64,000 nucleotides of DNA from an uncultured Bacilli bacterium (lineage in GTDB: Bacteria; Bacillota_I; Bacilli_A; RF39; UBA660): contig CALVON010000001.1 in NCBI GenBank assembly GCA_944350315.1, forward strand, positions 10,033 through 74,032, read 5' to 3'. The stretch's first letter is position 1, and each line of letters begins with the position of its first letter. This document shows, in pieces, positions 1,957-6,983 of this stretch. The translations under genes and the position numbers were made by a program. The notes below the pieces were generated by a model. It made no database searches and was not told where the DNA came from. It was given only the letters and a program-made list of their open reading frames with translations.

Positions 1957-2721
1957 TTACAATAATTTTTTAAAGTTTTCAACACTCTTTAGTATACTTT
2001 TTTCTTTCTTAGACTTTATTTCTTCATGCTTCATTTCTTCTTCTCTTTCTTTAATTTTATCAAGTGCTGAAGATGTAATCTGACTTCTTAAAACATTCTC
2101 AGCCGCATATGATATACTTTCACACATTTTTAATTCATAACAAATATAAAATGTCATTAAACTTCCTAATATTTGATCAACATTTGTCTCCATCACAAAA
2201 TCTTCGCCCTCATAATACTCCCCTTTAAATTCGACAGGAAACAACTGAATTTTAACAAATTCAAAAGAAGTCAAAGAATAAAAATGATTATAATATACAT
2301 TAATTTCACTATAATTTTGTGATATTATTGCTTCATCAATACATCTTTCAATCTCTACAAATCTCTTAAAGAAATCATCTTTATTAATTTTTAATAAAAT
2401 TTTATCATCTCTATAATTTATTTTTTTCCCAATTATAATTTTATAACAATCAAGATCTTTCTTTATTTGTCTACTAATCGAAGAATTGAAATTACCACAA
2501 AAACCATAATCATTAGCTATATATATATTTAGCTTAGGTTTATTTTTATCTGGTATCAATATTTTTTTATCTAAGATTAAATTTTTATTATACATAATTC
2601 TTGATAAAATATCAGTAATTTCTTTACCAACATTTCTATATTTTTCAGCATCTTTTAAAGCTTTATCCATTTTAAGAAGTGCTTGGAAGTTCATAACTTT
2701 AACAACATTTTTAATTTTCAT
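1957..2721 (-). CDS. F1 ATPase gamma-subunit-like protein (divergent)
   Basis: 254 aa. The N-terminal helix (MKIKNVVKVMNFQALLKMDKALKDAEKY) and C-terminal helix (ISYAAENVLRSQITSSALDKI) resemble the two AtpG coiled-coil helices (ITKAM.MVAA.K and ASE..AR..AM..AT.NA). GGGAGG RBS. Confidence 0.55.
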   Translation of the reverse strand: MKIKNVVKVMNFQALLKMDKALKDAEKYRNVGKEITDILSRIMYNKNLILDKKILIPDKNKPKLNIYIANDYGFCGNFNSSISRQIKKDLDCYKIIIGKKINYRDDKILLKINKDDFFKRFVEIERCIDEAIISQNYSEINVYYNHFYSLTSFEFVKIQLFPVEFKGEYYEGEDFVMETNVDQILGSLMTFYICYELKMCESISYAAENVLRSQITSSALDKIKEREEEMKHEEIKSKKEKSILKSVENFKKLL

Positions 2722-2733
2722 GAAATTCCTCCC

Positions 2734-3273
2734 TTATAATCTTTTATAATTTTTTTTCTTTAAAATCTCCTGATTAATCACAATATTATTTAAAAGTTTA
2801 AATGTAATATATGTAAAATATAAAAATATAAATATAATTACTAAACCTAATATTATTAGTAAAAAAATTGACGTATGTTTATCTATCAGATAATTATATA
2901 TCATACTACTAACATAAATACACAAAGAATTAATTGCGCAAAATAACAAATCAACAGGAATTCTTTTATACATTTTAGATACAATATCTGAACCAATCAT
3001 AAAGAAAACCATAATCAGTATATATATATAATTAAGTCCAGAAAAAGTAGCTGTTGCCCATATTAAAAATATATAATTAAGGGTAAGTAGACTAAATGAT
3101 AAAATTGACCTATTATTCATTCCTAAAAATAAACCATAAAATTTAACTTTATTTGTTTTTACATTATAATTTTTTAAAGTTAACTTAAAAGTAATTGCTA
3201 ATATTATCAAAAATATTAAAGCTACAAATAAGAAATTAACTACATTGCCTAATATATCAATACTTTTATTCAT
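2734..3273 (-). CDS. Polytopic membrane protein (about 5 TM helices), unknown family, inserted between the epsilon-like and gamma-like genes
   Basis: 179 aa and hydrophobic throughout. I could not find the a-subunit type conserved Arg (LRL..N) motif. Confidence 0.55.
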   Translation of the reverse strand: MNKSIDILGNVVNFLFVALIFLIILAITFKLTLKNYNVKTNKVKFYGLFLGMNNRSILSFSLLTLNYIFLIWATATFSGLNYIYILIMVFFMIGSDIVSKMYKRIPVDLLFCAINSLCIYVSSMIYNYLIDKHTSIFLLIILGLVIIFIFLYFTYITFKLLNNIVINQEILKKKNYKRL

Positions 3274-3274
3274 T

Positions 3275-3532
3275 TTAATTACCCTCTTTAATCATTAGAT
3301 TAAATACATTATTACTATTCATATAGAAAGCTTTAATATTTTTATAATTAAGTTCTACTTCTTCGTTTTTAATATCTACGCTTCCATCAATTTCTCCAAT
3401 TATTGGCAAATAATCTTGCATTATTAAAAGATTATAATCTTTACTAATTATCCTAATAACTTTTATATTATCGTATTCTATGAGACCTTTCGATAAATCA
3501 AATATTCTTACCTTTATTCCGTTACTATTCAT
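3275..3532 (-). CDS. F1 epsilon-subunit-like protein (beta-sandwich domain only)
   Basis: 85 aa, overlaps the beta-like stop by 8 nt. The pattern IKVRIFD...G..EYDNIKV.......[16 protein letters not shown] matches the N-terminal domain of AtpC. No C-terminal helical hairpin. Confidence 0.45.
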
Positions 3533-4874: not shown

Positions 4875-4891
4875 AGTCTCTCCCCAATCTA

Positions 4892-6217
4892 TTACTTATC
4901 CTTTTTTATCAAAAAGTCATAACTACTTATCATTTCATTTTTTGACCTAGGTGAGAATTTATACTGTTTTAAATTATCAAGAATTTTTCTACCTTCCTTA
5001 AGTCTTCTTTGCAAATCTTCACTCATTTCATCCATATTTGCTAATTCATAAATTTGTCTAACATCCAAATAAGAAAGAAGTTCTATCCTAACTTTACTGC
5101 CTACCTTTTTCATCATCTCGTCTTGTACATTTCCACCTAAACGAGAAACTGAAAGTCCGTAGTCAATAGCAGGTTTTTCACCCTTTGAAAAATTCTTAGT
5201 TGATAAAACAATTTGCCCATCACAGATTGATATAATATTAGTAGATATATAATCAGTAATATCTCCACCTTTAGTCTCAACTACTGGCAAAATAGTAATT
5301 GAACCGCCATTTTTGTGTTGACATCCTTTTTCCAATAATCTACTATGCGTATAAAATATATCAGATGGATAAGCATCTCTACCTGGCGTTTTCTTACTAG
5401 CCAAGCTTATTTGCCTATATATATCAGCATGCTTCTTTAAATCATCTAAACACACTAAAACATCATATGTTTGTAACATAAAAGACTCTGCAATAGAAAG
5501 TGCCACATAAGGAGTCAAATAAGTTCTTGTTGGAAGTTCATCGTGAAAAGAAGCTATAATTATTGTATAACTAGCTGCCCCTCTTTTAGTAAGCTCATAA
5601 TATATATCTTTAACTTCTTTTTTAGTCTTACCAATAGCAACATATATACATAAAACATTTTTATCTTTTTGATTAACAATAGTATCTAAACAAATTTGTG
5701 TCTTTCCTGTTTTTTTATCACCAATAATTAACTGTCTTTGTCCTTTACCAATTGGATATATAAGATCAATTCCCGTTATCCCTGTCAAAATTTCTCTTTT
5801 AACTAATCCCCTATCCATCAAAGGAACATTTTTATTTTCGACATTTATTTCAATTAAATTATCAAATTTCTTAGCAGCAAGAAGATCATTTCCAAAAATA
5901 TCAATAACTTTACCTATAGAATCTAAACTAAATAAACATTTAAATTCCTTTTTTAAAGCATAGACCATGTCACCTGGCTTAATCTCTTCATTAATTTTTA
6001 CCAAGGCAACAATTACCCTATCAGGATATATTCCGAATACATACCCAGAAGCCTTTTCAGCGATATTTATTTCCTCATAAAAAGCGACATCATTAAGACC
6101 AATAACTTCAATATTATAATCATTAACTTTAATAACTTTACCTGTATTATATACATTATCATTATTCTTAATACTGTCTATCGTATCATTTAAATTGCTA
6201 GTTAAAATGTCATCCAT
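4892..6217 (-). CDS. F1 ATPase alpha-subunit-like protein
   Basis: GDKKTGKT Walker [73 protein letters not shown]. The ORF track starts at a GTG (6235). The ATG at 6217, just after the upstream stop, is the more likely start. Confidence 0.88.
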
Positions 6218-6218
6218 A

Positions 6219-6983
6219 TTATACATTCCTTTCACTTAAACTAAAATCATATACCTTATTTCTATATATAATTTTAATACCCCTGTATATTTTATCATTG
6301 AATACTGTATTAATGTATTCACTTAGATGATCATAATTTTCACTCTTATTTCCAACCAATATTGTAATTTTTGGATTATTTAAATCTACTAATTGATCTA
6401 AGTACCCTATAAAATTATCAACGCTCTTTTCACTTACTACAAGGCAAAAAGCTTCATATACCTTATATTCTTTACTATTAAGCATTTTTTTAATTTTTTC
6501 GTCTTGTTCCAAAGACGTCATACTCTTAAGCTCATATATAACATCACTAGTAAACTTACCCCTCAAATTAAGACAAAATTCATAATTTTTATTTTCATCA
6601 CATAAAGATAAAAAGTCTTTAATCAATTCTTCATAATTAACTACAAAATTATCATCAATAAATTTATTAACCTCTAATAAACTTTTATCCTGATATTTAG
6701 CACTATTAAGTAGTTCAATTATATTCGTATCAAAAGCAATTTTTTTATCCTCTTTATTACTATTATCTTCTTTTATTCCCTTTTCTTTATTCTTAATTAA
6801 TTCATCAATTTCTAATAGTTTATTTTCCTTCTCAGTAATTAAATCATCATAACCTTGAAGTTTATTTATAAAATAAGACTTAGTTTGAGAATTAACAATT
6901 CCAACCGTCTTCTTTAATATCATAAACATTAAAAACACAAGAAAAGTAATAATCAAACTAACAATAATAAATAACGTTACCAT
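6219..6983 (-). CDS. Single-TM coiled-coil protein, candidate fused b/delta-like stator subunit
   Basis: 254 aa with an N-terminal TM (LFIIVSLIITFLVFLMFMIL) followed by a charged helical stretch. The C-terminal end (ITILVGNKSE...IYRGIKIIYRNKVYDFSLS) is reminiscent of the delta/OSCP C-terminus (..liGG..v.vgd.viD.S). It sits where atpF-atpH sit in canonical operons. Confidence 0.45.
   Translation of the reverse strand: MVTLFIIVSLIITFLVFLMFMILKKTVGIVNSQTKSYFINKLQGYDDLITEKENKLLEIDELIKNKEKGIKEDNSNKEDKKIAFDTNIIELLNSAKYQDKSLLEVNKFIDDNFVVNYEELIKDFLSLCDENKNYEFCLNLRGKFTSDVIYELKSMTSLEQDEKIKKMLNSKEYKVYEAFCLVVSEKSVDNFIGYLDQLVDLNNPKITILVGNKSENYDHLSEYINTVFNDKIYRGIKIIYRNKVYDFSLSERNV

Follow-up and report, generated by a model that had tools for sequence, protein, structure and literature searches.

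An F1-like ATPase cluster with a c-subunit lacking its ion-binding carboxylate, linked to giant predicted surface proteins in gut Bacilli and Clostridia

Introduction

What work could an ATPase of F-type descent perform if its c-subunit lacks the residue that binds the ion and no a-subunit is recognizable beside it? The question is raised by a cluster of seven genes in a 64,000-nucleotide (nt) stretch of DNA from an uncultured Bacilli bacterium (assembly GCA_944350315.1, contig CALVON010000001.1, positions 10,033 to 74,032), referred to below as the window. The window has a G+C content of about 25%, and the seven genes are tightly packed on its minus strand, from 7233 down to 1957, with intergenic gaps of -17 to +17 nt. 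They follow the order c82, p254, alpha, beta, e85, m179 and gamma, and are part of a run of eleven open reading frames (ORFs) on the same strand that extends from 15218 to 172 with spacings of -17 to +64 nt. An earlier note, made from the sequence alone, gave the coordinates and gene order of the cluster correctly, as the ORFs on the minus strand confirm, and described a rearranged ATP synthase operon with a fused b/delta subunit, a truncated epsilon and no a-subunit. It overlooked two features: the c-subunit has no ion-binding carboxylate, and the cluster is linked to giant surface proteins. The second of these bears most directly on function.

Results

A c-subunit without carboxylate and no recognizable a-subunit

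Ion translocation by F-type enzymes requires a carboxylate in the c-subunit and an Arg in the a-subunit. The first gene of the cluster, c82 (6985-7233, minus strand; 82 amino acids, aa), encodes a protein that matches Pfam ATP-synt_C (E = 3.8e-8) and finds its best match in the PDB in c1 of Acetobacterium woodii (4bem chain J, E = 2.5e-15). In a gapless alignment with A. woodii c2 and chloroplast c, Ala60 of c82 occupies the column of the essential ion-binding Glu, and the other known ion-coordinating positions are likewise not polar. Relatives of the cluster were collected in a scan of one genome per species, which returned 71 loci, titled as metagenome-assembled genomes of Bacilli, Tenericutes, Mollicutes or Erysipelotrichaceae plus Clostridium sp. 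CAG:302 and CAG:914, and probably belonging to the GTDB order RF39; three Clostridia loci (L083, L087 and L088) were examined as well. Neither Asp nor Glu is present in the second transmembrane (TM) helix of c in the window copy, in 50 copies from related loci or in the three Clostridia copies (54 sequences altogether). The GxGxGxG ring-packing motif and the cytoplasmic R-N-P rotor loop are nearly invariant across the homologues, and c ranks with the most highly conserved of the cluster's proteins, at 67-95% identity as opposed to 36-80% for the b/delta protein. Judged by these alignments, the c82 family consists of c-subunit homologues that lack the ion-binding carboxylate. The closest structural relative offers a partial parallel. 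In the duplicated c1 of A. woodii, the second hairpin has Gln where the first hairpin and c2 carry the ion-binding Glu; the other hairpins of that ring retain Glu and the enzyme pumps Na+, whereas here every copy of the sole c gene is without a carboxylate.

The counterpart of the c carboxylate, the a-subunit, is not recognizable in the cluster; E. coli AtpB finds nothing in the 64-kb window, which holds no other ATPase. The only further membrane protein among the seven is m179 (2734-3273, minus strand; 179 aa), which has five hydrophobic segments and no family match. The earlier note remarked that this protein does not show the Arg motif of the a-subunit, and this holds for the whole family: only F14, Y46, G47 and Y152 are invariant, and there is neither a conserved Arg nor a conserved charged residue in a TM segment. 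Comparison with the a-subunit and AtpI by hhalign, Pfam (42 members), PDB profiles and Foldseek returned nothing, so that profile, hhalign and fold searches were all empty. An AlphaFold2 (AF2) model built on a shallow alignment is a helical bundle with a predicted local distance difference test (pLDDT) score of 75, and its best Foldseek match is an unrelated protein (E = 0.5). We conclude that m179 is a novel membrane subunit with five TM segments and not an a-subunit.

The catalytic head and its putative epsilon

The head of the enzyme is far easier to recognize. The alpha-like (4892-6217, minus strand; 441 aa) and beta-like catalytic (3525-4874, minus strand; 449 aa) subunits both match Pfam ATP-synt_ab, with E-values of 1e-66 to 1e-71 (2.7e-71 for alpha), and are 34% and 40% identical to E. 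coli AtpA and AtpD, respectively. Beta retains Walker A, the GERxREG motif, Walker B and the EELSEED loop; its nearest relatives in the PDB are F1 beta subunits of Bacillota (380 bits), and its weakest F1-type match there is the G1-beta of Mycoplasma mobile (296 bits). Alpha, whose start position follows the gene calls made on identical contigs, has an N-terminal segment as long as the canonical one, the region that binds delta in canonical enzymes, and is missing the last approximately 70 residues of the C-terminal domain. The two proteins look like a catalytically intact pair of the alpha3beta3 type.

Gamma (1957-2721, minus strand; 254 aa) is the last of the seven genes. It is highly divergent, as had been stated, with 18% identity to E. 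coli gamma. The accompanying statement that only its terminal helices are recognizable did not hold, as the Pfam ATP-synt model spans residues 2-231, almost the whole length (E = 1.4e-25; 91 bits, with the cutoff at 39.9). Less can be said of e85 (3275-3532, minus strand; 85 aa), which has an 8-nt overlap with the end of beta, comes after beta without exception in both of the gene orders described below, and is well conserved. It has no family match, neither in Pfam, for which 25 members were searched, nor in a PDB profile search. When hhalign is used to compare it with epsilon (E. coli AtpC and a five-sequence epsilon alignment), a colinear but non-significant alignment over residues 3-85 is obtained (E of about 0.6). 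Its length leaves no room for the C-terminal helices of epsilon. By position, size and this colinear alignment, e85 is a candidate for an epsilon reduced to the beta-sandwich; of the truncated epsilon originally described, the position after beta and the size of 85 aa stand, while significant sequence support was found neither in Pfam and PDB profiles nor by hhalign.

A fusion of b- and delta-like parts

The only candidate for a peripheral stalk is p254 (6219-6983, minus strand; 254 aa). Its AF2 model, based on a 90-sequence alignment, has a mean pLDDT of 90 and consists of a continuous helix (residues 2-73) comprising the TM segment and a stalk, a disordered stretch (76-85), a helical bundle (87-201) and a beta domain (206-246). 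The topology is that of an N-out TM helix followed by a long helix, a linker and a complete delta/OSCP-like fold. When the model was compared with the PDB using Foldseek, ranks 1-34 were all delta/OSCP chains, including mycobacterial b-delta fusions, with modest E-values (best E = 7e-3), probabilities of up to 0.97 and 150-160 aligned columns. At the sequence level the window protein has no match in Pfam or NCBIfam and none in a profile search of the PDB. Among 90 members of the family, 7 give weak matches to Pfam OSCP (best E = 0.0015). The most conserved motif of the family, G-I-x-I-x-Y...Y-D-x-S, which is C-terminal in p254, aligns with the C-terminal motif of delta (residues 140-167 in E. 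coli; hhalign P = 0.007). Going by the fold of the model, p254 contains delta/OSCP, with weak support from the sequence. It has no sequence similarity to E. coli b, and the label "b-like" for its N-terminal part refers to architecture, topology and gene position. The b/delta relationship proposed earlier is borne out by the fold matches as far as delta is concerned, with one correction: the whole delta-like fold, bundle and beta domain, is present and not just its C-terminal end.

Relation to described ATPase families

The earlier note considered the cluster to differ from the F-type, N-type and V/A-type operons known to its author and advised a comparison with Mycoplasma clusters of Types 2 and 3. 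We find that it falls outside F-type, N-type and Mycoplasma Type 2 and 3, as every curated equivalog cutoff of the corresponding NCBIfam models is missed. The miss is narrow for beta with the canonical model atpD (TIGR01039, 453 bits against a cutoff of 462.85) and wider for alpha, which has its best match in atpA (TIGR00962, 379 against 484 bits; PRK13343, 412 against 554). The N-ATPase models alt_F1F0 give 349 against 750 bits for alpha, 419 against 752 for beta and 15.5 against 131 for c. With the Type 3 models MSC_0619/MSC_0618, alpha and beta reach 314 of 520 and 397 of 570 bits, and with the Type 2 models glide_MMOB1660/1670 378 of 600 and 350 of 850 bits.

Distribution and ancestral gene order

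A database clustered at 90% contains 591 relatives of p254, and at 50% identity there are 311 clusters. The length is 240-270 aa in nearly all cases, with matches that span the full protein. The order seen in the window, c-p254-alpha-beta-e85-m179-gamma, recurs in 57 of the 71 species-level loci. Six divergent Bacilli loci have the order c-p254-alpha-gamma-beta-e85-m179 instead. Distant members of the family (21-26% identity) are attributed to Candidatus Merdisoma sp. and to Peptococcaceae/Clostridia bacteria, at loci with 45-51% G+C. In the Clostridia, the genes are arranged as a giant protein (1817-2345 aa), a protein of about 550 aa, c, b/delta, alpha, gamma, beta, an epsilon-like protein, the m179 counterpart, a protein of about 240 aa and a second giant. 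Homologues of every ATPase component were detected there by direct search, marginally so for m179 (E = 8.6e-5 and 0.0055; not in L087). The recurrence of the seven-gene order in 57 of 71 loci, and of the cluster in the Clostridia loci, shows that the arrangement is not due to chance. Because the sister clades and the Clostridia keep alpha-gamma-beta-epsilon, the displacement of gamma is lineage-specific: the ancestral order corresponds to the canonical one with the a-subunit gene left out, and the displaced gamma is derived within one sub-lineage. The position of gamma at the end of the cluster was thus reported correctly for the window and was over-emphasized as a property of the system.

Two loci depart from this picture. 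In L080 (CP091726.1, a 1.46-Mb chromosome), the only complete chromosome with the cluster, every ATPase gene is fragmented, probably through frameshift errors of long-read assembly rather than as real pseudogenes. In L086 (3190-5037; GCA_964479615.1, a short contig), a c-like and a b/delta-like gene are followed by a ParA/MinD-type ATPase in the place of alpha; this could be a rearranged or degenerate version of the cluster, and the contig ends soon after.

Linkage to predicted surface proteins

Directly upstream of c82 are three genes for proteins with a single N-terminal TM segment, g243 (7298-8029, minus strand; 243 aa), g479 (8032-9471, minus strand; 479 aa) and g1912 (9480-15218, minus strand; 1912 aa). 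From the distribution of charges, all three are predicted to carry an N-in signal-anchor, so that the bulk of each should be extracellular. They share a paralogous membrane-proximal base domain of about 200-250 aa: g243 can be aligned over its whole length with the first ~250 aa of g1912 (hhalign probability 94.7%, E = 5.9e-8), and the N-terminal domains of g479 and g1912 are homologues of each other (probability 97.8%, E = 7e-13). Conservation among the giants is highest in the N-terminal ~200 aa. Their distal parts resemble Gly-rich linkers with fn3-like repeats after them, to judge from faint matches to fn3 and collagen; beyond faint fn3, g1912 has no match in Pfam, NCBIfam or the PDB, and g479 has no informative match. 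The three proteins differ only in the amount of distal fn3-like and Gly-rich sequence, g243 consisting of the shared domain alone. The common base domain suggests that they form a hetero-oligomeric base at the outer face of the membrane.

The triplet adjoins the ATPase genes in 24 of the approximately 44 related Bacilli loci whose upstream flank is long enough, and a giant-protein neighbourhood is also found in all three Clostridia lineages examined. Homologues of g1912 were identified by direct search in two of the three Clostridia loci, and L087 has a 2345-aa protein in the same position. Homologues of g479 stand next to g1912 in Bacilli and Clostridia loci and were found by direct search in all three of the latter. 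For g243, homology was detected in one of the three (L088, E = 3.2e-11); in L083 and L087 a counterpart of approximately 240-258 aa is assigned by its position and N-terminal anchor alone. In the deep-branching loci, a g243-like protein is placed after the m179 homologue. A second, still larger N-anchored giant (at least 3200-3900 aa, cut short by the end of the locus) is seen downstream of the ATPase in L083 (15894-20771), L087 (15860-20795) and L088 (15933-20771); the alignment of its N-terminus with the shared base domain is weak (E = 0.004). It is absent from the window, where p589 follows instead.

The product of p589 (172-1941, minus strand; 589 aa) is acidic, coiled-coil-rich and predicted to be cytoplasmic, with no TM segment and no informative match; its gene begins 15 nt after gamma. 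In nearly all loci with gamma last, gamma is succeeded by a homologous segment that varies in length; p589 is absent from the deep-branching loci, which do have the surface proteins. From this synteny we infer membership of p589 in the ATPase system.

The organization of transcription can be approached from promoter-like sequences. Only two perfect matches (12/12) to a sigma-70 promoter with an extended -10 element occur in 16.6 kb, one ahead of g1912 (15250-15278, minus strand), preceded by a terminator-like hairpin (15285-15305), and one in the 64-nt gap before c82 (7272-7301, minus strand). As matches to the consensus, they suggest that the genes led by g1912 and those led by c82 may constitute two adjacent transcription units.

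Discussion

A proposed rotary ATPase uncoupled from ions

The catalytic head, the rotor connections and the stator stalk of this system are under clear purifying selection, with identities of 64-91% for alpha and beta within the family. The c carboxylate and the a-subunit Arg, on the other hand, were lost before the Bacilli and Clostridia branches of the family split. Because these residues are missing while head, rotor and stator are conserved, the output of the motor is unlikely to be an ion gradient, and because the linkage to three or four paralogous anchored proteins is conserved, the surface proteins are its likely load. The explanation that we favour, and to which we give an even chance, is an F-type-derived rotary motor that hydrolyzes ATP, is uncoupled from ions and energizes the surface proteins encoded with it. 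The F1-like head would hydrolyze ATP and thereby turn gamma, the putative epsilon and the c-ring, with the b/delta fusion and m179 serving as stator. As no ion path is recognizable, work would have to be passed on mechanically, across the membrane, to the anchors and base domains of g1912, g479 and g243, and in other lineages to the second giant. A machine at the cell surface could in this way go through a conformational or rotary cycle and serve adhesion and release, movement or the remodelling of the surface, by analogy with the F1-like ATPases of Mycoplasma that act on gliding legs (Type 2) and on the MIB-MIP system (Type 3) (PMC11864180, PMC12994834).

Several points weigh against this proposal. 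About 20 loci, those of the clade of Clostridium sp. CAG:302, are without g1912 and g479 beside the ATPase, so that the link is either not universal or the giants are encoded elsewhere in these genomes. The identity of e85 as epsilon stays putative, and both the rotation of the rotor and a torque path to the surface proteins are pure inference.

The CAG:302 clade has peculiarities of its own. At its loci (L040-L069), a 244-aa N-anchored protein, unrelated in appearance, is encoded 10-16 nt before c (e.g. L045, 9009-9743); homology of this protein to g243 could not be shown. In L045, the only locus of the clade inspected downstream, three paralogous secreted proteins follow (15860-18180), two of them with weak matches to camelysin/TasA-like proteins (Peptidase_M73).

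Alternative functions

An F1-like head combined with a b/delta fusion might instead power secretion, membrane insertion or folding of the giants. The FliH of type III export, which works in the FliI-FliJ-FliH complex, resembles a b/delta fusion, and an export or assembly ATPase would account for the very large extracytoplasmic proteins as conserved neighbours, for the loss of the ion machinery and for the presence of the fusion itself; FliH-FliI is also among the fold matches of p254, as a very weak one (rank 47, E = 4.5). The giants, however, carry ordinary N-terminal signal-anchors suited to Sec/YidC, and no protein resembling an export gate was detected in the cluster with Pfam or NCBIfam. 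Flagellar and type III secretion ATPases are single homo-hexameric enzymes, whereas the present system has two distinct alpha/beta paralogues of the heterohexamer type and retains gamma and the c-ring. The models for FliI/SctN score far below those for F1, with best values of 167-224 bits against cutoffs of 380-620. We regard an export function as unlikely, the best placed of the alternatives as it may be.

A scaffold or regulated ATPase that does not rotate would use the c-ring and the b/delta fusion only as a tether for the head; its conformational changes would act on p589 or other factors, and the surface proteins would be neighbours for a different reason. This would fit the cytoplasmic coiled-coil protein after gamma in most Bacilli loci, the position of the ATPase away from the giants in some clades, and the precedent of the M. 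mobile G1-ATPase, which acts within a cytoplasmic chain (PMC11864180). It is at odds with the conservation of the R-N-P loop of c, of gamma and of the putative epsilon, which argues for a coupled rotor, and with the absence of p589 from deep-branching loci that do have surface proteins. We hold such a function to be rather improbable.

Could the cluster encode a housekeeping F1Fo enzyme after all, so divergent that m179 is a degenerate a-subunit and ions are moved by unconventional chemistry? The gene order of the deep branches is that of the canonical operon minus a, beta scores just under the atpD cutoff, no other ATPase is encoded in the 64-kb window, and genomes in the lineage of the window seem to be small, a related complete chromosome measuring 1.46 Mb. 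Against this stand the c-subunits, with a carboxylate in none of 54 sequences and no polar residues at the other ion-coordinating positions, and m179, with neither a conserved Arg or charged TM residue nor any likeness to a in fold or profile. The identities of beta (40%) and alpha (34%) to the E. coli proteins are also telling, as the subunits of canonical enzymes are much closer to E. coli than that. Finally, the same system is found in Lachnospiraceae-type Clostridia with approximately 50% GC, which normally carry ordinary ATPases. A housekeeping role is in our view very unlikely. The idea that an atp operon is decaying here in reduced genomes, to which the loss of a and of the c carboxylate and the shortening of alpha and the epsilon candidate might point, is effectively refuted by conservation, as the ORFs are intact in about 70 species-level genomes with high identity within the family, the 311 b/delta clusters are all full length and the system is present in Clostridia with larger genomes.

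Comparison with known systems

If the cluster encodes an ion-independent motor for surface proteins, its nearest functional parallels are the F1-like ATPases of mycoplasmas, which energize surface proteins (PMC12994834, PMC11864180, PMC3369863). The Type 2 and 3 clusters contain a 12-TM protein, a cytosolic "protein 2" and a two-TM protein of 85-127 kDa; none of their proteins is recognizable as c, b or delta, and the N-terminal helix is missing from their alpha (PMC3369863, PMC12994834, PMC11864180). The Type 3 set of seven, which is linked to MIB-MIP, consists of the 12-TM protein, cytosolic protein 2, gamma, epsilon, the large two-TM protein 5, alpha and beta (PMC3369863, PMC12994834). With these systems the present cluster has in common a head derived from F1 with alpha-, beta-, gamma- and epsilon-like components, a non-canonical membrane sector, a seven-gene core, the absence of an a-subunit or ion-translocation signature, and the tie to large surface proteins. 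It differs in keeping c, a TM-anchored b/delta fusion and the N-terminal segment of alpha, and in gene order. Unlike Type 3, it has neither a 12-TM nor an 85-kDa two-TM protein, and its neighbours are without family matches; unlike the Type 2 G1-ATPase, its beta, at 449 aa, does not have the approximately 30-kDa N-terminal extension. The hosts are gut Bacilli and Clostridia, and beta is closer to ordinary beta of Bacillota than to G1-beta.

Canonical F1Fo (atpIBEFHAGDC) shares with the cluster homologous c, delta (here fused), alpha, gamma and beta, the catalytic motifs and, in the deep branches, the order c-(b,delta)-alpha-gamma-beta-epsilon. It is set apart by what the cluster lacks or has altered: no a, no carboxylate in c, b and delta fused with a short stalk helix, a candidate epsilon without C-terminal helices, an alpha shorter by ~70 C-terminal residues, and an extra 5-TM protein. 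The mycobacterial b-delta (PDB 7njn chain d), which is among the fold matches of p254, similarly combines a stalk helix and the delta fold in one polypeptide. It is some 440 aa long and acts alongside a separate b' and a normal proton path through a and c, whereas the fusion described here has 254 aa and is the sole candidate for a stalk. The N-ATPase (atpDCQRBEFAG) is a second, laterally spread F-type operon with rearranged order and no separate delta (PMC2881411, PMC4154653). It keeps a and c with a full ion site, in the order beta-epsilon-I-R-a-c-b-alpha-gamma, and thus differs in both content and order. In full-text searches of the literature, F1-like ATPases were discussed for mycoplasmas only, and no description of a cluster of the present kind outside mycoplasmas was found. 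On the explanation favoured above, the cluster is a new form of the "F1-like X0" idea, known until now only from mycoplasmas.

A bolder possibility, which we advance tentatively and consider clearly doubtful, is that gut Bacilli and Clostridia possess a new class of surface machine, in which an ion-"blind" c-ring passes torque directly to the single-pass anchors of giant proteins and so gives a rotating or cyclically actuated appendage, and that this machine is also the missing intermediate between F1Fo and the gliding and antibody-cleaving motors of mycoplasmas. Accessory TM helices sit inside the c-rings of V-ATPases, and the anchors of the giant proteins might similarly be located in or around the c-ring. 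Apart from this bolder possibility, the system would extend the principle of an F1-like motor acting on surface proteins to abundant and mostly uncultured gut Firmicutes, and it is larger when measured by the size of its protein family (311 b/delta clusters at 50% identity). Since its c and b/delta parts can still be recognized, it would offer a legible stage on the way from a true ATP synthase to the mycoplasma motors. Published work has proposed as a hypothesis only that Type 2 proteins arose from fusions of b with delta and of a with c (PMC7052211); here a b/delta fusion is directly visible. A rotor ring without an ion site would further provide a natural experiment on the role of the c-ring apart from carrying ions. 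A named strain, Candidatus Merdisoma sp. HCP28S3_D10, is given as the source of one member of the family; from its designation and WP_ accession this strain may be available in culture.

Other features of the window

Immediately upstream of g1912 (15307-18408, minus strand) are genes for a rhomboid protease, a RluD-type pseudouridine synthase, signal peptidase II (LspA) and a protein that carries the N-methylation motif of type IV pilins. Three of these, for the rhomboid protease, LspA and the pilin-like protein, were considered as parts of the system and rejected; the rhomboid gene is syntenic only in the closest relatives and so probably unrelated. Further away, a complete class-B RNase P RNA is located at 36987-37325 on the minus strand (271.6 bits), which together with the low G+C content identifies the source of the window as a low-GC Firmicute; a tRNA gene was detected nowhere in the 64 kb. 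Two divergent proteins of approximately 650 aa have sulfatase domains (25883-27829, minus strand; 27945-29894, plus strand) and may, as a guess, be lipoteichoic acid synthases of the LtaS type, which would point to an envelope of the Gram-positive type and not to a wall-less one. The GC skew of the plus strand is strongly and almost uniformly negative over 1-64000 and nearly all genes are on the minus strand, which is consistent with a single replichore with a strong gene-strand bias.

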